From a virus, in the IMG/VR virus record IMGVR_UViG_3300009601_000004, positions 1 through 64,000 of that record: 64,000 bases of DNA; one strand, 5' to 3'. This document shows, piece after piece, positions 38,187 through 60,034 of this stretch (positions are counted from its first letter, which is position 1; every line of letters starts with the position of its first letter). Below the pieces are notes generated by a model. That model made no database searches and was not told the DNA's origin. It worked only from the letters and a program-made list of their open reading frames with translations. Both the position numbers and the translations under genes were made by a program.

Positions 38187-38378
38187 CTAGGCCCAGTAGC
38201 CAGCATCACGGTGGCGGTTCATCGCTAGTTGCGCTGCGAGTATACGCTTGCCGTCTTTGCTGCGTTTGGCTTCGAGCAACGCGCGGTAGAGAATGCGGCG
38301 CTTAGCAAGGTACTCCGCGTGGAACTTCAGGTATTTCGGGTCAGCGCTGCCATACTTCTTGCTCACGTTTCGCTCCAA
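38187..38378 (-). CDS. Small basic protein
   Basis: Downstream of polA on the same strand. Confidence 0.45.
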   Translation of the reverse strand: MERNVSKKYGSADPKYLKFHAEYLAKRRILYRALLEAKRSKDGKRILAAQLAMNRHRDAGYWA

Positions 38379-41300
38379 CGGGATTGACCCATACCTAGCG
38401 GGTCATCTTCGCGGAGGGCCATCCCTGGATCAGCCGTGAAGTTGACACCGGGGTATGCCTCGTTGGTGACGTTCATCCGCTCGATGAGCAGGTCGTAGAT
38501 GCGCTTCGCGTCGTGCTCTGGGCACTCGACGGTGATGGAGTCGTGGCACTGGTTGATGATGCCGGTGCCGGGACCGGCGTACCCAAACGGAATGCGCGGT
38601 ACGAGGTCGGCCATGATCTTGTTCATCAGGCCCGCGCCACTCGCTTGGATGGGGAAGTTCACGAACTCATTCAGCTTCGAGGCGCGTTGGCCTGTGAAAT
38701 CGCGACGGCGCCAGGTGACCGGCTCGTAGATGCAACCGTGCGCCTTGACCAAAGCCAGCTCGCGGAGCCAACCGTCAATGAACTCCGGGCACCCCTTGAG
38801 CCAGTTTTCGTGCATGGCGCCGACCTCCATCTCCGTGAGGTCGGGGAAGAGGAGTACACCGCGCTTCTTGTCTTCGGCGGATGTGACCAAGCGGAACACC
38901 GTGTGGGTGTCCACGACCTCGACAGAGCCACCGCGGACGGCACAACCAGCTGCGTACTGCGAGGCGTATTGAATGGCCTTAGCGAGTTTGCGCATCTTCT
39001 CGAACTCGCCACCCCGCGCGAAGTCCTTGCGGCCAAACACGGAAGGTGCGCCGCCGAAGTTCATCATGCGAACCCGGCCGAAGACGGCTTCCATGGTCAT
39101 CTGGTGCGGGTCAATGCCCTTCTCAAAGGCTTCAAGGTACCGGGCAGCTCCCCAGCGGGCGGCGGCGATGCGCAGCTCCAGCTGGTCCATGTCGGCGCCT
39201 ACGAGCAGGTTGCCGGGTGCCGCGATGATCATGCCCTTGGCGAGTGCCGGCAAGTTCTGGACGTTAGGCCCGCTACTGCTGTACCGCCCGGTCACTGGGG
39301 TATGGTTGTTCCAATTCGCGTGGAGACGGCCATCTACCCAGGTGCGGCAGGCTTTATCCAGCGCAAGGTCGCCGGTTGGGGGGCGGAAAGGCCGGACGTA
39401 CGTGCCCCACATCTTCGCGTGGCGACGCACCATGCGGATGGAGTGGATGAACTTGCGCTGTAGGTCGGTGAGGTTTGGGTCAACCATGAGCTGACGCAAC
39501 ACGCTGTCCCCGGTGCTGATCTCACCGCTGCTCGTGTACAGCTCTTTGTTCTTCAGCTTCGTAGGGATGGGTAGTTCCCACTCATCGAATAGAACGGCGC
39601 GCAGCTGGGGGTGTGACAGGGGGTTGAAGGCTAGCGTGTCGAGACCCAGCTCTGACGCATTCGGCAGGAATCCAGCATCCCCGAACTCGTCTTTGGCGTC
39701 AGCGTCTGCCTCTTCTCGCTCATCAAGGGATGCTTCTAGCTGCCACTCGCTGTTTGCCTTGTCCGCTTTCTTGGAGCGCTTGACGATGTCCGTCACGTCC
39801 ACGCCACCGGCCTGGAGCACTTGACGAAGACGCAGGGTCCACTGCGGCACCGCACCACGCGGCAACGTGACCATGCCCTGCGACCCGTCAGCGTTCCGTT
39901 TGCCATTCCGTATGGTGATCTTGCCGGGAGACGCGAGCAATAGGTCAAGGCGCTCCCGCTCGTCTTGGTCGACCTGCATCCCTTGGTAGTGCATCCCTAC
40001 GCAGGCGCTCTGCATGACATGGTCCAGCGTCAGCACGCCGGTTTGCTGGCGCTCCTTGAGCACCTCGTACATGCGTGGGACGGTGTCACCGGGCACAACA
40101 TTGTCCCAGATGCAGTAGCGCCACAGCGTCTCATCCGTCCGAGCGTGTACTGCGGTGTGGTTGCCCTTCCAATCGTGGATGTCTGTCCACACACTGCCGA
40201 CGGTGCCGAGGTCGTTAGGTATCTCTGGCTGTACAGAGCGCTTTACTTGGATGCCATCAAGGTGGGGCGAAGGGCTCCACCCTGACCTACACTCGGTCAC
40301 GATTCGGTCGTATTGCCCGCTGTTCCAGCCTACTTTGAGTATTCCGGCGTCGGTTCCCCAGTGCTTCAGTATGCGGTCGCGCTCCGCTTGCTCGTGGGCG
40401 TCGTACAGGGGTAGCCGTGTACCATCGTCCATGGTGTACCAGTCTTCGTAGAACCCCGGCGGGTTGCTCTGAACATCGGCGATGGCTGCGCGTATGGCTT
40501 CGGACTGCACAGCGCCCTGCGACTCGTACACTTGGCGGAGCCGCACAGCCGCCTGCTGGCGCGCTTCCGTCTCGCGGCGCCACTGTACCGGGTCGTAGGG
40601 CACGATGACGCCCCATGTGGTCGTACCGATGCCAAGGCACCGCCGACGCGCAGTCATGGCACGAATGCCGTCAGTCTCCCAGTCCCAGAAGTGCGTCTTC
40701 GTGCCTAGCCAATCCAGGGGTAAGTAGTCTGGGTGGTCTCGCTGGATGAGCAGACGTTCCATATCGGCGACGCCGGGACGGTAGATCATCTTGGTGTCGA
40801 ACACACGCAGTTCACCGCGCCACCACCGCCAAGCCCGGTCGAGGTCCGCCATGAACACCTCATCCCACTGGCTTTCGCGCAAGACGAAACCAGGGCTCAG
40901 CATGGGCAGGATCTGTCGACCTGGGACGCGAGAGGGGTCGAGACCTTCGGCCTTCAGGCGTTCGGGGTAGTCAAAGAACGGTCGAGGGTCCACGGCGGAC
41001 AATGGCAGCTCGACTAGGCGGCCACGAGCGTTGCCAATGCCCCCACGTAGGCCAGGGACGATGGCGCGGGCGGACACCGGACCAAACGGAATGACGTGCA
41101 GAAACGGCGCAATCTCCCGATGCATCCGGGGGGCGCAACACTCGGTCGGCGTTGGGATTGGTTGCTTGCCAGCGCTGGCGCGCTTTTTGTTGCGACGGCG
41201 CAGCTTGCTTTCATACGCGGTCACGTCGCCGCCGGGGGACATGCACGCCACCGTAGATGTCGTTGATAGGTGATGGCGAGACGTGCCCAGCCGAACGAGT

Positions 41301-41521
41301 GCATCGTCTAGGTAGCCACCAGTACGCCCAGCAAAAGGCCGGTCGGCTAACAGCTCGGACTTGCCTGGTTCCTGTGCGACTCCGACGCGGTCAGTCCCCG
41401 GAATGATCTCGGAACCACAGGGCCCATGGCCTTCGGTGCGCAGTGGGCAGATGTCGCAGCGAGCGCCTAGTGCCTGCATGTCTTCGTAGGAGGTGTGGCC
41501 GGCTGGCCTGTCTATCACCAT
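38363..41521 (-). CDS. polA: Family A DNA polymerase with N-terminal family-4 UDG-like domain and 3'-5' exonuclease
   Basis: UDG-like CDICPL...EPG..E...PFAGRTG; exonuclease DWETD, NSGQYD, YCIWD; polymerase TGRYSSS, ADMDQLELR, RKLAKAIQY, HDS. Confidence 0.92.
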   Translation of the reverse strand: MVIDRPAGHTSYEDMQALGARCDICPLRTEGHGPCGSEIIPGTDRVGVAQEPGKSELLADRPFAGRTGGYLDDALVRLGTSRHHLSTTSTVACMSPGGDVTAYESKLRRRNKKRASAGKQPIPTPTECCAPRMHREIAPFLHVIPFGPVSARAIVPGLRGGIGNARGRLVELPLSAVDPRPFFDYPERLKAEGLDPSRVPGRQILPMLSPGFVLRESQWDEVFMADLDRAWRWWRGELRVFDTKMIYRPGVADMERLLIQRDHPDYLPLDWLGTKTHFWDWETDGIRAMTARRRCLGIGTTTWGVIVPYDPVQWRRETEARQQAAVRLRQVYESQGAVQSEAIRAAIADVQSNPPGFYEDWYTMDDGTRLPLYDAHEQAERDRILKHWGTDAGILKVGWNSGQYDRIVTECRSGWSPSPHLDGIQVKRSVQPEIPNDLGTVGSVWTDIHDWKGNHTAVHARTDETLWRYCIWDNVVPGDTVPRMYEVLKERQQTGVLTLDHVMQSACVGMHYQGMQVDQDERERLDLLLASPGKITIRNGKRNADGSQGMVTLPRGAVPQWTLRLRQVLQAGGVDVTDIVKRSKKADKANSEWQLEASLDEREEADADAKDEFGDAGFLPNASELGLDTLAFNPLSHPQLRAVLFDEWELPIPTKLKNKELYTSSGEISTGDSVLRQLMVDPNLTDLQRKFIHSIRMVRRHAKMWGTYVRPFRPPTGDLALDKACRTWVDGRLHANWNNHTPVTGRYSSSGPNVQNLPALAKGMIIAAPGNLLVGADMDQLELRIAAARWGAARYLEAFEKGIDPHQMTMEAVFGRVRMMNFGGAPSVFGRKDFARGGEFEKMRKLAKAIQYASQYAAGCAVRGGSVEVVDTHTVFRLVTSAEDKKRGVLLFPDLTEMEVGAMHENWLKGCPEFIDGWLRELALVKAHGCIYEPVTWRRRDFTGQRASKLNEFVNFPIQASGAGLMNKIMADLVPRIPFGYAGPGTGIINQCHDSITVECPEHDAKRIYDLLIERMNVTNEAYPGVNFTADPGMALREDDPLGMGQSRWSET

Positions 41522-52625: not shown

Positions 52626-52646
52626 AACCAAGGTTAAACCTTGGTT
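52626..52646. repeat. Perfect palindrome AACCAAGGTT-A-AACCTTGGTT in an AT-rich intergenic region
   Basis: Read directly from the sequence; lies upstream of TTGCTT-N18-TAGGCT. Confidence 0.8.
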
Positions 52647-52760: not shown

Positions 52761-53801
52761 ATGGCGAAAGGGGTAGACCCTGACCTTCGGTCAGTGGACA
52801 AGAGTAGTGAAGAGAACACCGAAGGTGAGACCTCACCTGCTGCGAAGTACACCGAAGCTCTCAATGCGGGCGACGACCCACATCAGGACTTCGTCCTAGT
52901 GCCCAAGGCCACTCGGTCTAAGGGTATTGACTGGTGGAAGGAGTTGGGTCTTGTCGAAGACGGTCCACAAGCCTCGGATGACCGCTTCTTTGCCCCTCGG
53001 GCGCTGACAGGGCGCTACAGCAGCAGCGAGCCAGAGATGCAGCGTATGCCCCCAAAGGTGGGAAGCCGTCGCCATCTGCGTGAGCAGGACGCGTACGAAG
53101 CTCGCTTCAAGGCAGGGGAAGACTTCGTCGTAGCCGACGACGACCTCGCCAAGCTAGAGATGCGCATTGCAGCGACAACCCCGCTCGACCTCTTCAACAT
53201 TCTGCGGAAGGGTGTCGGCCTCAGCACGGTGGAGCGCAGCCGAGCGCTAAACCGCCGCCTTGGGGCTGTGGAACGCGGTACCGAGATGCACCGCCGCATC
53301 GCAGCCGGTGAAGACCCCACGGGTGTCGTTGCTGCCTTGGACGAAGCACGGAAGAGTGGTCAGTTCGTGGTCCTCGACGACTTTAGCCTGATGGTCCCAC
53401 CGCCGACACCCGAGCAACGCACAGTGGTCAATGACCTCTTGGCCCTTGTGAGCGCTGCTATTGCCCCCACTGACCTTGAGCCCTTCCCCGACGACGCCGA
53501 CAACTGGAAGCAGGGCCTTCCCACAGGCGAGGACACGGTTGTCGGCATTGACAACGGCAGCTCTAGTCACCAGATCATCACCCCTGCGCCCGTCGGCATC
53601 CAGTGTGGCAGCTGTGATGTCGCTTGGTACGCCGACTCGAACGGCATGGTGACCATGCAGGTGTCCCGTGGTGTCGCTCGCGTGATCACAGATGAGACCG
53701 TCCAAATCGCCCCTGCTGTGCTGCCCTACAACTGTGCTTGCCCTCATTGTGGCAGTGGCGCGCTCAACCCTGTGAAGACACTACCGGAGACCTCCCCATG
53801 A
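52761..53801 (+). CDS. Mosaic protein carrying isolated PolA and other enzyme motifs plus a C-terminal Zn ribbon
   Basis: TGRYSSSEPEMQRMP, VVADDDLAKLEMRIAA, RGTEMH, FVVLDD, VVGIDNG, CGSC...CPHCG. Confidence 0.7.
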   Translation: MAKGVDPDLRSVDKSSEENTEGETSPAAKYTEALNAGDDPHQDFVLVPKATRSKGIDWWKELGLVEDGPQASDDRFFAPRALTGRYSSSEPEMQRMPPKVGSRRHLREQDAYEARFKAGEDFVVADDDLAKLEMRIAATTPLDLFNILRKGVGLSTVERSRALNRRLGAVERGTEMHRRIAAGEDPTGVVAALDEARKSGQFVVLDDFSLMVPPPTPEQRTVVNDLLALVSAAIAPTDLEPFPDDADNWKQGLPTGEDTVVGIDNGSSSHQIITPAPVGIQCGSCDVAWYADSNGMVTMQVSRGVARVITDETVQIAPAVLPYNCACPHCGSGALNPVKTLPETSP

Positions 53802-54142
53802 GTAAGCGCATATTCCACGTCACTGCCCACGCCTACGCGGACACCGGTGGCTCTGACATCGAAGCCGATAGCGCTGATGCTGCCATGGAAATTTACGTTG
53901 AAATGGACGAAGCGTCACCGTCGGTCTGTCACCAGTGCTCAGAGGGTGTGCAGTTTGGCGACTTTTTCATGCACACCGTGCAGGAAGGTGGCAAGGAAGT
54001 GTACAACGACCTTCCTTCTGCTGGGGAACGTCGCGAGATTGTGGCGCTGTTGGGCGCTATTGAGGCGTCGGTTAGCGTAAATGGTACCTTAGAGCCGGCT
54101 GACATTGCGCTGCGTCTGCGGGGTATCCTCCATGGAGCGTAG
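53798..54142 (+). CDS. Hypothetical protein
   Basis: ATGA coupling; GGAG RBS. Confidence 0.65.
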   Translation: MSKRIFHVTAHAYADTGGSDIEADSADAAMEIYVEMDEASPSVCHQCSEGVQFGDFFMHTVQEGGKEVYNDLPSAGERREIVALLGAIEASVSVNGTLEPADIALRLRGILHGA

Positions 54143-55412
54143 TCGACAGCAGCAACGCCTGTTCATCACGGTGGGCAGTAACCACCTTGAGGACTTCATC
54201 GACAAGGTCGCAGCGGAGGCGGAGACGCTGCGCACATCACACGGCAAGGGTGCGGTTGCGTTGGTGTTCAACACTTTCGACACGCGCCGTGCCGTGTCCT
54301 GGGAACTGGGTGCAAGCCTACGCGATTACCTCCTGTACGCCGTGGACACGTTCATACTGCGCGATCAGGCAGAGGAGCCGGCCATTGCTGCGGTGCTCGT
54401 TGTGGGCCCTCCTACGTACGCGCGTTTGATGAAGGTGGACAGCCGGTTCACACAGGGGGCCAACCCCATGCGCGCACAGGTCACCTACATTGCTACGGCT
54501 CCTGACATGGAGGAGCTGCGCCGGAACCTAGCGTCGATCGACACAGCACTCAGTGAGGCAGCGGCCAACGCCGACAGGACCGCTAGTGCACTGCAGGTGT
54601 CGGAACGTCAGGCCGCCCTTGCTCTGCAGCACGAACAGGACCGCAAGGAAGCCGTAGAGCGCACAAAGCAGAGCTTGCGTGACTTAGGGGGCCAGTTCAG
54701 CATCGAGACCGTGGGCATGGATGACGTCCGAGACCCTACCAAAAATGCGGGTGCCGCTTCCGAGCTGTCACGCCTAGAGCTGACCCGACACATGGCGCTT
54801 GACGACGTGAACCACCGTGCGCAGATAGGCGCACTCGAAGACCTGCTAAACGAGATTGCGCGGGACTTGGGTACGAAGCCTGGAGACTTCCAAGCGCTGC
54901 GCTCTGCTATCCTCCAAACCCGCCTGGGGCGCAACGCACCTGAGTTGTGGGCTGCGTGGATGACAGGCACCGTAGATTTGATGGGGATGCAAGCACTACC
55001 CCGTGTCGGCCACATGGCACCCATCCACCACGCCGTGCGCGCCATGATGCAAGCGCATCAATCAGACTCGACAGACCGCAAAGTCACGCTCAAGGAGCAA
55101 GCCGTCTTAGAGGCTGCGGCACCTACCCTTGCGCTGATGGAGACGGCTACAGGCAACCTGCGTAAGCTGTTCAGTGAAGCGGCTGAACGTGCCGAAGAAC
55201 GCCGCCAGCAGGCCGCTGCGGGCACCGACACACCACAGGCCGTGGTCCAGGGTCTCGACGACTTGCTCGTCCGTGTGAAGGCCCTCGGTGTCCGCGACGA
55301 CATGACCGAAGGTGAGCAAAACGCCATGAACATCGTGGCATCTCATCTAAGCACGCTTCAGCGCACCGCTGAAGCTCTACTTCCCCCCATCAACATCCCG
55401 GCGGCTACATGA
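54132..55412 (+). CDS. Coiled-coil hypothetical protein
   Basis: Long ORF in the operon. Confidence 0.7.
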   Translation: MERSRQQQRLFITVGSNHLEDFIDKVAAEAETLRTSHGKGAVALVFNTFDTRRAVSWELGASLRDYLLYAVDTFILRDQAEEPAIAAVLVVGPPTYARLMKVDSRFTQGANPMRAQVTYIATAPDMEELRRNLASIDTALSEAAANADRTASALQVSERQAALALQHEQDRKEAVERTKQSLRDLGGQFSIETVGMDDVRDPTKNAGAASELSRLELTRHMALDDVNHRAQIGALEDLLNEIARDLGTKPGDFQALRSAILQTRLGRNAPELWAAWMTGTVDLMGMQALPRVGHMAPIHHAVRAMMQAHQSDSTDRKVTLKEQAVLEAAAPTLALMETATGNLRKLFSEAAERAEERRQQAAAGTDTPQAVVQGLDDLLVRVKALGVRDDMTEGEQNAMNIVASHLSTLQRTAEALLPPINIPAAT

Positions 55413-55780
55413 ACTACGACCACAGTCTGCACAAGTGCAACGAAGAGACCTGCCAAGTCTGCCGGGGTGGCCTCGCCTTCTGTGAGGTCTGTAGCGGCGG
55501 GGAAGGGAGTCTCCCAACGTCGTGCCCTGGCCGTACTATGACAAGTGAAGAGGGTGACGAGGTCTACGGGGCACGCCGCGACTGGGCAGTCATCGCAGGC
55601 CACCGTGTGGAGCTTGTACGTGCCCACTACCAAGACCCCTGGCAGGAGGCAGCACGGTCTGTGACGCAGCGTCTTGACCGCCCTAACGCGGCGCCTGTTG
55701 TCGACTCTGCCTCCGATGCGCAGCTAGGGTCATACGCTCGGACCTTCTCCTCCCTTACTGCGCGGACGGACAGAGCATGA
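55409..55780 (+). CDS. Cys-rich Zn-finger protein
   Basis: CQVC...CEVCSGGEGSLPTSCPG. Confidence 0.65.
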   Translation: MNYDHSLHKCNEETCQVCRGGLAFCEVCSGGEGSLPTSCPGRTMTSEEGDEVYGARRDWAVIAGHRVELVRAHYQDPWQEAARSVTQRLDRPNAAPVVDSASDAQLGSYARTFSSLTARTDRA

Positions 55781-57009
55781 ACCCGCTCAAGCAACTAGCA
55801 GCTCGTGGGGCCATCTACGCTCAGCGCTACACGGGAAGTGCGGGCCAGATTGCACGCCGCACCAGTGACATCGTCGAGACGTGGTTTCACGCGCAAGAGG
55901 GTCCAGCCATCCTGCGGGGAGTGGCCGCCGTGTCCATCCTGAGCCAGCTGGCCGACCTTGTCCACACCATGTGGGACTTTGACCAGCTGATAGTAGCTGC
56001 AGGGTGGGAGCTAGTGCCTATGGGCAAGGATGCGCACACAGCCCTCATCACACGACTACGACCCTTTGCTCTGCGCTCACCGGACATCGAAGACGACGAC
56101 GGGGAAGGCCTAAGCGTCCTCACCTGGGTCGACGAGCACGGGCGGGCCGTTGTGATGGCGACCGAAAACAGGTGGGACGAAAAGTTTGCAGAAGTCGAGC
56201 CCGGTGCTCTTGATGCCCTGATCGGGTTTCATGTGTGGAGCCAGCCTATTTTGGAGGTTGTGCGGACCACCGACGAGGACGGCAGACACACAGTCACGCT
56301 GAACCCCTGCTCTGAGCCTGACCGGACCTTGGTGGGCAACCAGGTCCAGTCTGTGCAACAGGCTTGTGTGGTGTCGGAGGATACGCGGATTGTGGCTGTG
56401 CTGGGCTCGACGGGGTCAGGCAAGACATCCAGCGTCTATCAAGCGCTGTCAGGCCGTCGCGTGCTCTGCAACGTGGGGAACGTGCTGAGCCCGAGTAGCC
56501 TGATGGTGTTGGTACGCACGCTCAAGCCGGACGTGGTGGTTCTAGATGACCTAGAGATGTCAGACGACTTCGACGCCGGTCTAGGGCGGGCACTTGACCA
56601 GCTGCACCAAGAGGTACCGCTGGTCATCATCACCGTGATGCTGGACGAGTTCCTGTCGGTAGAGGAGATGGAAGCTGGGGCAATGTACTGGTCTGGAATG
56701 CGACCGGGCCGCATTGATCAGTTTGTGTTCATCGGCAAGCTCGATGACGGTGACCGCGCGAAGGTGCTCGATCTGTACGGGTGCCCTCCATCGCTGCTCG
56801 CAGAGGCCGTAGCAGGCACAGGCTGCCTTAGTGCTGCGTATCTACGGGAGACGGCCCTACGTCTCAAAGCGGGGGGTGACCTCGCTACGACGCTCCGCGA
56901 CATCCGCCTGCAAGCCCCCATCGAGATGTCCCCGGATGGCCTCGACTCGCAGGGCAAGCATTCGCGCAAATCTGTCACCACACCCGATGAAAACGAGGAC
57001 AGCCCATGA
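55777..57009 (+). CDS. AAA+ ATPase
   Basis: GSTGSGKTS, VVVLDD, RPGRID. Confidence 0.85.
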   Translation: MNPLKQLAARGAIYAQRYTGSAGQIARRTSDIVETWFHAQEGPAILRGVAAVSILSQLADLVHTMWDFDQLIVAAGWELVPMGKDAHTALITRLRPFALRSPDIEDDDGEGLSVLTWVDEHGRAVVMATENRWDEKFAEVEPGALDALIGFHVWSQPILEVVRTTDEDGRHTVTLNPCSEPDRTLVGNQVQSVQQACVVSEDTRIVAVLGSTGSGKTSSVYQALSGRRVLCNVGNVLSPSSLMVLVRTLKPDVVVLDDLEMSDDFDAGLGRALDQLHQEVPLVIITVMLDEFLSVEEMEAGAMYWSGMRPGRIDQFVFIGKLDDGDRAKVLDLYGCPPSLLAEAVAGTGCLSAAYLRETALRLKAGGDLATTLRDIRLQAPIEMSPDGLDSQGKHSRKSVTTPDENEDSP

Positions 57010-59150
57010 GACCGATTGCACTCCCCCCAGCACCAGGCACTGCAGCTACGGTTGACAACCGCAAAGTTAGCTACCCTGCGCATACCCGTCGCAAGGTGCA
57101 AGCCGCGCTTGACCGGCTCGACCCTGACCAGACGCGCAGCTCACAAGCTGTGCGAGCTGGCAAGCGGGGCGCGCTACGCATTGCAGCGACCGCAGGGTCA
57201 GGCAAGACGACGTCGCTAATCGCAACGCTCGCAGCGCTCATCGTGCTTGATGACGTGGACCCTCGCGAGATCTGCGCAGTCACGTTCACAAACAAGGCGG
57301 GTACCGAGATGCGCGAGCGCCTCGCACACCTCATTGGCCTAGTGCCCAAGGGCCTGCGCATGGGTACGTTTCACGCCCTTGCCCTGTCACGTCTTCGCGA
57401 GCTGGACAAGGACCGTGGGTGGGCGAATGACCGCAACCTCGACATCGCACGGTTTGACTCCGCCATACCGTCATCTAAAGAGATGTGGGAGTCAATCATA
57501 GGCTGGCGGCGAGGTGGCGTCTTTGGCAGTGAAGAGAAGTCCTTGTCTATCGACGGGGCGGATTGGCAAGAATACCAGCTTGTGGTCGACCAGCTTCGAG
57601 GGTCCGGTTTGCGCGTCAGTGACGACCCCCTCAAGGTGGCGGAAGCCTGCGAAAAGAAAGGTCTGCCCAGTCTGTACACGGCGTGGAAGCTGTTCGCTGG
57701 CGGCAAATCGCAGCTCAACATCTGGGACTTTGCCGATGCCCTAGACGCCTATCTCGACCTCATCACAGACGGTCGGGAGCCTTGGACGCCTCGGTACATC
57801 GTGGTGGATGAGGCCCAAGATAACAACATGGTGCAGCTGTCTGTCGCCATGGCTCAGCGCGCTGTGACTGACGGTACATTGGTGCTCGTCGGTGACGGCT
57901 CACAGAGCATCTACGAATGGCGTGGCGCGACGCCGGAGGTATTTTGCAAAGCAGACACTCTCATACCGGGCACTGAAACGACCACGCTACCCAACAACTA
58001 CCGCTCTGTCCCGGCCATCGTAGCGCTGGGCAACCGAGTCGGCGAAACACTGGGGAACGAGTGGACTGCCGGCCTTGTCGCCCGTGCCATCCGCCGCAGT
58101 GTGCCAAGCATCCAGCCTGTGGGGGCACTCGTAGGCAAAGACCCACTGATGACCGCCTACCTAGCAGCCGACGTCATTGCCAAGGCCGTGAAGGAAGGGG
58201 GAAAGCCCGACGACTTCGCTATCCTCATCCGCACCAACAACGCCGCCGCTCTCTACGAGGGTGCGCTCATGGCGAGGGGCATTCCATGTGTCCGCTGGGG
58301 CGGTACGCCTTTCTGGGAACGACACGACGTGCTCGGTTTCGTCGGGTACCTTCTGTTGGCGGAAGGCGGCAAAGGTGGTCGGGTAGCTGACACAACGCTC
58401 GTGCAGGACGGTGGGGCCTTCCGGCGCATTGTCAATCAACCTCTGCGCTACTTGCCCCGTGCGTGGACTGACGCCGTCGTAGACCGTGTCTACAACGGAG
58501 CCCCCTTGGTAGAGGCCATTCGGGATGAGCGCAGAGGCCTGAAACAAAAGAGCCAAGTGCGAACAGGCGAACTTGCCAGTTTCATCGAGCGCATTCAAGG
58601 CCACAGCTGGGAACACACCCTGTCAGTCGTGCGGCGCAAGATGGTCGAGGGAATCCCAAGGGACAATGGTCAGCAACCTGACGAAGAGAAACGCGCGGTT
58701 CCTGCGACATGCGCCGGCATCGCCAAGCGCGAATACTGCGGTGGGGAGCCGATGAGCAATGGCCTGCAATTCGCGCGGTACGCTGATGCAGGTGCGCGCA
58801 ACGCGGCGCGGGCAAATGGTCAAATCCCGGAGGGTAGGACCGTCCTGTCCACCGTCCACCGTTTCAAGGGCCTAGAACGCCCCCGCGTCATCATTCCGAT
58901 GGAAGATGGCCTATTCCCACACAAAAACTCGAAGGGTGACCCTGGCCGTTACGGCGAAGAACAGCGTTTGTTCTACGTGGCTGTGACCCGTGGACGTGAC
59001 CAGGTGTTGGTCACATGCTCACGCGCCAACCTAGATGGCGAGCCTCTTGGCACGTCGGACTTTGTGGACTTCCTGCCTGATGACGTGCGTAGCGACATCA
59101 AGGACGCCATGGCTATCGACGACTACGGCGACGAGGGGTACGAAGAATGA
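57006..59150 (+). CDS. uvrD: UvrD/Rep/PcrA-family helicase
   Basis: ATAGSGKT, TFTNKA, VDEAQD, VGDGSQSIYEWRGA, NYRS, TVHRFKGLE, LFYVAVTR. Confidence 0.95.
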   Translation: MRPIALPPAPGTAATVDNRKVSYPAHTRRKVQAALDRLDPDQTRSSQAVRAGKRGALRIAATAGSGKTTSLIATLAALIVLDDVDPREICAVTFTNKAGTEMRERLAHLIGLVPKGLRMGTFHALALSRLRELDKDRGWANDRNLDIARFDSAIPSSKEMWESIIGWRRGGVFGSEEKSLSIDGADWQEYQLVVDQLRGSGLRVSDDPLKVAEACEKKGLPSLYTAWKLFAGGKSQLNIWDFADALDAYLDLITDGREPWTPRYIVVDEAQDNNMVQLSVAMAQRAVTDGTLVLVGDGSQSIYEWRGATPEVFCKADTLIPGTETTTLPNNYRSVPAIVALGNRVGETLGNEWTAGLVARAIRRSVPSIQPVGALVGKDPLMTAYLAADVIAKAVKEGGKPDDFAILIRTNNAAALYEGALMARGIPCVRWGGTPFWERHDVLGFVGYLLLAEGGKGGRVADTTLVQDGGAFRRIVNQPLRYLPRAWTDAVVDRVYNGAPLVEAIRDERRGLKQKSQVRTGELASFIERIQGHSWEHTLSVVRRKMVEGIPRDNGQQPDEEKRAVPATCAGIAKREYCGGEPMSNGLQFARYADAGARNAARANGQIPEGRTVLSTVHRFKGLERPRVIIPMEDGLFPHKNSKGDPGRYGEEQRLFYVAVTRGRDQVLVTCSRANLDGEPLGTSDFVDFLPDDVRSDIKDAMAIDDYGDEGYEE

Positions 59151-60034
59151 AACGCGCAGGCTCCAAAGGTGGGCCCACCACACAAACACAAGCCAAGTTC
59201 CGTGCCCAGTTCGGCAAGTACCTCGCGGACCAAGGGCTGTCCGACGCAACAGTCAAGCAGTACGTGGGGCGTGGCGCGGCTTGTCTGCGCTCGCGTCAGA
59301 CGCCAGCGCAATGGCTGCAGTCTAAGGTGGGTAAGGGGGCACCTCGCGGGACCGTGCTGGGGTACCGTAGTGCAGCGCAGCACCTGCACGCCTTCCTGTC
59401 CATTGTGAAGCCTAGCATCGCAGGAGAGCCCCCTAAGGTCGACATGAAGCGTGTCGTCAAGAAGCGGCAGCTTCGGCTGAACAGTAGTCTTGATCCCGAA
59501 CGCCTCAAGATGTACATAGATGCCGTGCTCGCCGATAAGGTCATCTCACCCGAAGCGCGCGCCATCCTGCTGCTTTTGCCCTTCACGGGTTTGCGCGTTT
59601 CGGAGGCTTGCAACCTGCGACCGTCGCACCTGGTCAAGCAGGGCAATGTGCGCTGCATTCACGTAGCCGACGGCAAAGGGAACAAGGAGCGCTTCGTCCC
59701 CATGGGCAAGCGTGCCAAGCAGATCACTGACCACTACCAGCGCAAACACCGCTTGCAGGGGCCTTGGCTCTTTCCGAGTCCGATGTCCCCCTCCCGACCC
59801 ATCACACCCAACAACGTGCGTGTTCACCACCGCCGCATCCGCAGAGGTTTAGGGCCGGACTGGGAGTCTGTCCTTGTCCATGACCTACGGCATACGTTCG
59901 CGTCGCTGCTCATCGAGCGTGGTGTGCCCCTGCCGGCCGTCAAAGACCTGCTAGGGCATGAGAGCGTGAAGACCACCGAGATCTACATCCACAGCAACGC
60001 GAGCGCACTCAAAAAGTACGTCGACCAGCTCTGA
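59147..60034 (+). CDS. Tyrosine recombinase (XerC/D-like), intact
   Basis: GLRVSE, GKGNK, HDLRH, LLGH, TEIY. Confidence 0.95.
   Translation: MKRAGSKGGPTTQTQAKFRAQFGKYLADQGLSDATVKQYVGRGAACLRSRQTPAQWLQSKVGKGAPRGTVLGYRSAAQHLHAFLSIVKPSIAGEPPKVDMKRVVKKRQLRLNSSLDPERLKMYIDAVLADKVISPEARAILLLLPFTGLRVSEACNLRPSHLVKQGNVRCIHVADGKGNKERFVPMGKRAKQITDHYQRKHRLQGPWLFPSPMSPSRPITPNNVRVHHRRIRRGLGPDWESVLVHDLRHTFASLLIERGVPLPAVKDLLGHESVKTTEIYIHSNASALKKYVDQL

Follow-up and report, generated by a model that had tools for sequence, protein, structure and literature searches.

The first 64 kb of the complete 92,736-bp virus record IMGVR_UViG_3300009601_000004, a genome with direct terminal repeats, constitute the window (64,000 nucleotides) analysed here. 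At positions 52,761–53,801 of its forward strand, the window contains an open reading frame (ORF) for a 346-residue protein, P0001, first pointed out in an annotation made from the nucleotide letters and ORF translations (the sequence-only reading) and confirmed in our analysis. P0001 is homologous to the family A DNA polymerase (PolA) which the same virus encodes as a fusion with UDG, and the homologous segment is permuted. We consider it somewhat more probable than all other explanations combined (roughly 55%) that P0001 has an accessory, non-catalytic role and that the PolA fragment it captured is now largely vestigial. The features on which this interpretation is built are the following.

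52,761–53,801, forward strand: ORF of P0001 (346 residues), the first gene of a forward-strand operon, which we take to encode a fast-evolving accessory protein
52,899–53,174, forward strand: main PolA-derived block, P0001 residues 47–138, equivalent by HHalign to PolA 709–787 (segment preceding the TGR motif, TGR motif and motif A)
53,007–53,051, forward strand: residues 83–97, TGRYSSSEPEMQRMP, counterpart of the PolA TGR motif (TGRxSSxxPNxQNxP)
53,127–53,174, forward strand: residues 123–138, VVADDDLAKLEMRIAA, counterpart of motif A, with D126 (the catalytic Asp), E133 and R135
52,839–52,886, forward strand: residues 27–42, AAKYTEALNAGDDPHQ, counterpart of the post-motif-A helix of PolA (792–807, AARYLEAFEKGIDPHQ), placed out of order
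38,363–41,521, reverse strand: resident UDG-PolA fusion (1052 residues), part of the replication module
39,101–39,397, reverse strand: stretch of the PolA gene (residues 709–807) that matches the captured block, from the sequence comparison with P0001

A permuted fragment of PolA

A hidden Markov model (HMM) built from 107 intein-free relatives of the resident UDG-PolA scores P0001 at 18.4 bits, compared to a maximum of 3.6 bits among 2000 shuffles, and in hmmsearch it assigns 14.1 bits to residues 79–139. Pfam DNA_pol_A (PF00476) matches residues 81–139 with an E-value of 1.8e-3 (17.7 bits, under the gathering score of 34.3), BLASTP against the resident PolA yields an E-value of 1e-3, and all PDB matches of P0001 (7/7) are to Pol I. 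When all phage records were queried with P0001 using tblastn, the matches were confined to DNA polymerase genes of Bacillus phages, and a six-frame scan of the whole genome with the PolA HMM recovered PolA and the P0001 ORF only.

The sequence-only reading had singled out TGRYSSSEPEMQRMP and VVADDDLAKLEMRIAA as matches to the virus's own PolA. Their counterparts were located and the similarity is far above that of shuffled sequences, but the description of these segments as isolated motif islands does not hold, because both lie within one colinear block: the alignment of a profile of P0001 and its 303-residue relative P0002 to the PolA family equates residues 47–138 with PolA 709–787 (HHalign probability 93.4%, E-value 2.4e-7). 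Within this block, TGRYSSSEPEMQRMP agrees with PolA at the invariant positions G, R, S, S, P, Q and P, with the two invariant Asn residues replaced by E and R, and D126, E133 and R135 fall on invariant columns of motif A (D..Q.ELR), with a two-residue insertion. Altogether, P0001 matches 18 of the ~24 near-invariant PolA columns.

A second piece, AAKYTEALNAGDDPHQ, is identical to PolA AARYLEAFEKGIDPHQ at 10 of 16 positions (BLASTP E-value 5e-3, HHalign E-value 4.6e-4); none of 20,000 shuffles of residues 27–42 reached its score against PolA 788–832, and 12 of 1000 did so against the whole PolA. In PolA, the block comes first and the helix follows; P0001 has them the other way round, with four residues (DFVL) between helix and block. 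Given that neighbouring pieces of PolA stand in reversed order, the similarity amounts to ~100 contiguous PolA residues in circular permutation. Residues 27–138 descend from ~100 contiguous residues of a UDG-type PolA which encompass the thumb base, palm, TGR motif, motif A and the next helix. The arrangement [792–807]-DFVL-[709–787] is what one would expect of a partial tandem duplication whose ends were later trimmed.

Missing motifs and the limits of the homology

The fragment accounts for about 100 of the ~400 residues of the polymerase domain, in agreement with the earlier remark that the rest of the polymerase is absent. Motif B, motif C, the fingers, the thumb, the exonuclease and the UDG domain are all missing from P0001, and the native order of the PolA motifs is not kept. 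For motif B with the O-helix (R..AK..NFG..YG) and the fingers, the family profile finds nothing beyond residue 138; HRRIAA alone aligns with the first motif B residues of one Pol I, with the K, F and Y missing. Likewise, no significant alignment to motif C (HDE) with the second catalytic Asp was obtained in residues 183–346. Lacking motif B, motif C, the fingers and the thumb, P0001 is therefore incapable of polymerising.

The boundary of the homology is less sharp immediately downstream of the block, in a stretch defined by alignment:

53,175–53,333, forward strand: residues 139–191, absent from P0002 and bounded by EMRIA and EMHRRIA

A phmmer match to a Pol I chain (PDB 6vdc) spans residues 76–182 (E-value 0.024) and is not significant with the profile of the resident PolA's family; residues 139–191 may continue the PolA block toward the start of motif B. 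At the DNA level (window positions 53,142–53,306), this 53-residue insert relative to P0002 is flanked by similar repeats, GAGATGC...GCAGC, which suggests a deletion or duplication through microhomology.

The phmmer match is also among the observations that could be taken to indicate that the whole of P0001 is a degenerate, shortened PolA domain which forms a single fold and keeps PolA order all the way between the TGR motif and motif C. By eye, residues 195–240 and the string VVGIDNG can be aligned with GxV..GRRR, ER.A.N..QG.AAD and motif C; the distance from the TGR motif to the end of the protein is 263 residues, equal to that in Taq polymerase; and in the ESM Atlas the closest feature clusters belong to DNA_pol_A (0.87–0.88, to be read as a lead only), the confidence of the Atlas model being 0.42. 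However, in a profile–profile comparison of residues 183–346 with the PolA domain, the E-value was 0.5 and 143 of 200 column shuffles did equally well. HHalign is silent beyond residue 138, the N-terminal piece is out of order, and the order of modules differs in the relative P0004. We accordingly regard a colinear pseudo-polymerase as highly improbable and disfavour it. A decayed second PolA gene around P0001 was considered as well and rejected, given that tblastn of PolA on the 50–57 kb region finds just the two in-frame pieces.

Other enzymes did not contribute recognizably to P0001. The sequence-only reading had portrayed the protein as a patchwork of several replication enzymes joined by low-complexity linkers, but PolA alone contributes, as a single block, and the supposed linkers include two of the best-conserved modules of the family. 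The strings on which the wider patchwork was founded do exist. Nevertheless, for the pairs RGTEMH/RGSLYH (PD-(D/E)XK nuclease) and FVVLDDFSLM/VYVDDATLLM (Walker B-like), BLASTP against the two proteins concerned returned E-values of 0.6–19 without recovering the claimed pairs, and RGTEMH sits in the stretch missing from P0002; VVGIDNG, read as a RuvC-type strand, is at chance level and is not conserved in P0002. More broadly, a comparison with the PDDEXK_1 protein of the window bearing on PD-(D/E)XK and RuvC gave BLASTP E-values of at least 0.6; for P-loop ATPases, P0001 has no ATPase family match and BLASTP against the AAA_24 protein gives E-values of at least 2. No PHROG, NCBIfam, PADLOC or anti-defence family matches P0001, and no pieces of other genes of this genome were found in P0001, P0002, P0004, P0005 or the 102-residue ORF of the P0004/P0005 contig described below.

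Source of the fragment

The block displays traits of the UDG-PolA family, namely, a motif A of the LELRIAA type and a K.TR.K.G..G.V segment ahead of the TGR motif, which points to a polymerase of this family, rather than a bacterial Pol I, as the donor. The resident PolA is not the best match: its rank is 19 of 121 for the main block, and for the short helix it comes 7th, with more distant family members scoring higher. The matched pieces are 62–67% identical in nucleotide sequence, and 14 of 27 identical residues share the codon. The low DNA identity, the difference of about half of the codons and the rank of the resident PolA together imply that the capture is old or that the donor was another phage. 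The synonymous codon differences quoted in the sequence-only reading are correct, and its view of an old likeness at the protein level, with no recent DNA duplication, is borne out.

Many UDG-PolA relatives (P0007, P0010, P0056, P0086, P0089, P0092, P0094, P0098 and others) contain inteins at no fewer than four positions (at least ~452, 740–755, 853 and 959 in the numbering of the window PolA), several of which are inside or next to the TGR motif. The resident PolA has no intein.

The proximity of intein insertion sites to the TGR motif raises the question of whether the fragment is linked to intein homing at the DNA level, either as a by-product of break repair at the TGR site or as a bait, or second cutting site, of the homing endonuclease. 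Four relatives (P0007, P0010, P0056 and P0094) carry inteins near PolA 740–755, in or next to the TGR motif, and the two genes share ~80% identity over the 30 nt that surround TGRYSSS, compared to 62–67% for the whole pieces. This DNA identity is, however, accounted for by the shared amino acids; the borders of the block in P0001 do not coincide with intein sites; the window PolA is intein-free; and P0001 resembles no intein or endonuclease, with no Pfam match to intein splicing blocks, LAGLIDADG or HNH domains and no BLASTP likeness to the inteins of the PolA relatives. A homing-related origin thus appears very unlikely. Nor was an intein relic found in P0001.

A further observation concerns a single position of the TGR motif. 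P0001 (residue 86) and its PolA (residue 747) both have TGRY, Y being rare in the family, whereas P0002 and its presumed PolA, P0006, have TGRF. This match hints at co-variation or is a one-site coincidence, and is too thin to count.

A small family of modular, fast-evolving proteins

Relatives of P0001 were sought by an exhaustive HMMER search over 1.84 billion representatives, two word-indexed searches and a profile search. The family consists of 3–4 members in ~15 billion proteins: in addition to P0001, we identified P0002 (303 residues), P0004 (186 residues) and P0005 (83 residues), which share the reading frame of P0001. Scans of viral contigs revealed no further relatives, and at distant PolA loci no P0001-like gene was detected, the PolA of those loci alone producing a match. 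A metagenome scan led to one 1665-bp contig, L002, which carries P0004 and P0005 at 132–1235 in two ORFs of the same frame (186 and 90 residues), separated by a stop and an overlapping 102-residue ORF in another frame that has no relatives. P0005 is followed by a homologue of the next large gene of the window, indicating that synteny with the window is kept on L002. The contig also contains two copies of a small module, VSTK..HAALTAYV.ANK.

For the modules of P0001 that can be aligned with L002, the ratio of nonsynonymous to synonymous substitution rates (dN/dS) is ~0.3–0.4, with dS of ~1.1, which indicates that P0001 is a real coding gene under moderate constraint. Conservation is uneven along the protein. 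Between P0001 and P0002, identity is 71% over residues 1–66, rising to 81% (13/16) in the PolA-like helix at residues 27–42, which is also kept in P0004; it is 33% over residues 67–138, lower than in the flanking modules (residues 1–66 and 192–241), 64% over residues 192–241 and 24% over residues 242–346. P0002 aligns to the PolA HMM at motif A only, where it reads ADLEDLEKRIA versus ADMDQLELRIA in PolA. P0004 retains the N-terminal 45 residues and the middle module, in a different module order, and the whole part from the TGR motif to motif A is missing. Two modules downstream of the PolA block were delineated in these comparisons:

53,334–53,483, forward strand: middle module, residues 192–241 (FVVLDDFSLM, RTVVNDLLALVSAA), kept in P0002 and P0004, with no known family or PolA signal
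53,580–53,714, forward strand: C-terminal CxxC module, residues 274–318, present as a separate small ORF (P0005) on L002

The second Cys cluster of P0001 (residues 324–329) is not conserved. Two further candidates for PolA-derived pieces in the relatives were rejected: a motif B-like segment of P0004, RHTLKSVLFGANYG, gives an E-value of 0.25 with the family HMM, and a QG.A.D-like piece was considered in P0002; neither protein has a match to Pfam DNA_pol_A or to a Pol I in the PDB.

The polymerases P0003 and P0006 belong to one 90% cluster (~92% identical), whereas P0001 and P0002 are just 37–47% identical, so that the P0001 slot changes, through divergence or exchange, much more quickly than the replication core does. 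P0006 and P0002 each list the same 47,037-bp JGI contig as their longest.

Relic or working module?

The PolA block appears to be largely vestigial, given that it is less conserved in the family than either flanking module, is not specifically similar to the resident PolA and has been deleted in one relative. P0001 would then be a real, rapidly evolving, modular phage protein located behind a conserved putative promoter and leader, with its function probably residing in the N-terminal (~20–66) and middle (192–241) modules, both helical in a low-confidence AlphaFold2 model, and it would act by binding rather than catalysis.

Several observations weigh against the vestigial status of the fragment. 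The 18 of ~24 near-invariant PolA columns are still matched although synonymous sites look randomised, and the TGR motif and D..LE.RIA persist in P0002. The 16-residue PolA-like helix lies within the best-conserved module and is retained in all three relatives, and the TGRY/TGRF pattern hints, at one site, that the fragments co-vary with their PolAs. Furthermore, the AlphaFold2 model, built from four sequences, has a predicted local distance difference test score (pLDDT) of 37 and is unusable. The retained PolA residues could reflect selection, in which case the block would be functional and not a relic.

If so, the block would have been exapted with the role which this surface has in a polymerase, gripping the 3′ end of a primer or the minor groove of a duplex, or contacting a replisome partner. 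P0001 would then regulate replication or repair without catalysis, together with the helicase and recombinase encoded in its operon. The equivalents of Klenow R668, Q677, D705, E710 and R712, residues with roles known from Klenow mutagenesis, are kept (mapped through the PDB matches), near-invariant PolA columns are matched at saturated synonymous sites, P0002 retains the TGR motif and motif A, the short helix is in the best-conserved module, and the operon is shared with UvrD-like and Xer-like genes. Conversely, the block is poorly conserved (33%) and missing from the L002 relative, two invariant Asn residues of the TGR motif are gone, and half of a palm sheet is unlikely to fold alone, in line with the lack of a confident model. 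We therefore consider a working exapted module possible but doubtful.

The sequence-only reading had proposed that P0001 is an immune decoy or a dominant-negative protein; in that case, the block would mimic the PolA surface so as to titrate a host sensor or disturb the polymerase. A fast-evolving, modular gene behind a conserved expression leader is indeed reminiscent of counter-defence genes, the Borvo defence system senses a phage family A polymerase (10.1101/2022.08.27.505566), and the Y/F co-variation with the resident PolA, at its single site, points in the same direction. However, Borvo escape mutations map to the proofreading cleft and not to the palm (10.1101/2022.08.27.505566). The closest match of the fragment is not the resident PolA (19th of 121 for the block, 7th for the helix), the part from the TGR motif to motif A is 33% identical versus 71% and 64% for its flanks, its motifs are poorly kept in P0002, and P0004 on L002 does without this part altogether. 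There is no PADLOC or anti-defence family match and no mimicry of several enzymes. The sequence-only reading had itself named findings that would count against it, and these came out in part: several of its motif matches do not exceed those of controls, and the PolA motifs are lacking in one homologue. The decoy idea gains no support from the present data; we do not favour it and judge it quite improbable.

A broader generalization, namely, that phages repeatedly keep diverged signature pieces of core enzymes in fast-evolving accessory proteins as mimics, P0001 with the primer-terminus face of the palm being one example of a general class not yet described, is speculative and, in our estimation, unlikely. 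Such mimics would serve as decoys for host polymerase sensors or as competitors for a replisome partner.

Comparison with known systems

Compared to complete family A DNA polymerases (PF00476), P0001 is homologous over residues 27–138, from the segment preceding the TGR motif through motif A to the next helix, but it holds only ~100 of ~400 polymerase-domain residues, in permuted order and with a sub-threshold Pfam score. UDG-fused PolAs of phages include those of the N4-like cluster 17 and unclassified UDG-PolAs (PMC10201439). PolAs that are split or truncated yet active are also known, such as the exo/pol split of the S-SBP1-like type and the staphylococcal CCPol (PMC10201439). Similar to P0001, these are genes of phages or mobile elements that contain part of a PolA; unlike P0001, they possess the whole polymerase domain with all catalytic motifs and a complementing partner. 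P0001 is instead a sub-domain fragment embedded in unrelated sequence, with a complete PolA elsewhere in the same phage. In the literature searched, no described case of a PolA sub-domain fragment in an unrelated protein turned up.

Mosaic phage genomes contain chimeric ORFs produced by illegitimate recombination and variable 'moron' genes behind conserved promoters. The tiny family of P0001, the gain and loss of modules, the conserved leader and the use of a core-gene fragment as raw material are all in keeping with such genes, whereas the age of the fragment, its still recognizable functional residues and its circular permutation set P0001 apart. If the fragment is a relic, P0001 is a clean example of how mosaic phages assemble ORFs out of core-gene pieces and of how a conserved regulatory leader can precede a hypervariable gene slot, which is of use in annotation but otherwise ordinary. 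If, on the other hand, its residues are selected, P0001 would be a non-catalytic protein based on a sub-domain of the polymerase palm, and the question becomes whether its reader is DNA ends, a replisome partner or a host sensor.

The upstream leader

P0001 is preceded by a 227-bp non-coding gap and the ribosome-binding site AAGAAAGG. Upstream of the gene lies a leader conserved with L002:

52,626–52,760, forward strand: leader, with a 21-nt palindrome (52,626–52,646) and a structured 5′ region

The leader is identical to that of L002 at 116 of 132 nt (88%), despite the coding dS of ~1.1, and is thus far more similar than the gene behind it. The palindrome, AACCAAGGTTAAACCTTGGTT, is perfect over its 21 nt and unique in the window; its half-sites recur once in the genome, at 60,912 (AAGGTTGCAACCTT). 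In the 92.7-kb genome, AAGGTT-N(1-2)-AACCTT palindromes are found at just two sites (52,630 and 60,912), both intergenic and upstream of forward-strand features, and the looser core AGGTT-N(0-4)-AACCT returns the same two sites only, with ~0.2 expected by chance; the two palindromes may be sites for one regulator. The rest of the leader is predicted to form a long hairpin (z −4.4) in which upstream sequence pairs with the ribosome-binding site and the ATG, and a consensus fold of the two sequences also pairs the leader with the Shine-Dalgarno/ATG region. No Rfam family matches the leader. We consider it a candidate operator and translational control element ahead of a variable gene slot. A conserved control region before a variable gene is the pattern of accessory-gene slots.

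Genomic setting

The virus has no close cultured phage, the top PolA match in the phage collection being 29.5% identical. Upstream of P0001, on the opposite strand, lies the replication module, which encodes an RNase T-like exonuclease, a DUF3987 protein, an SNF2 helicase, a PD-(D/E)XK nuclease, an AAA_24 protein and the UDG-PolA. Composition and repeat analysis revealed no island or repeat signature. P0001 heads a run of genes (52,761–60,034) that mostly overlap or abut:

53,798–60,034, forward strand: six genes after P0001, encoding a PHROG 9642 protein, a protein of ~426 residues, a Cys-rich protein, a Walker-A-like protein, a UvrD/PcrA-like helicase and an Xer-like protein

The 114-residue member of PHROG 9642 belongs to an uninformative family. 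The ~426-residue protein has no family assignment and has a homologue on L002, the 123-residue protein is Cys-rich with no informative family match, and the 410-residue protein has a Walker-A-like GSGKTS motif and weak matches only to NTPases. The operon ends with the UvrD/PcrA-like helicase, which also matches the GajB and DRT helicase models, as would any UvrD, followed by the Xer-like tyrosine recombinase.

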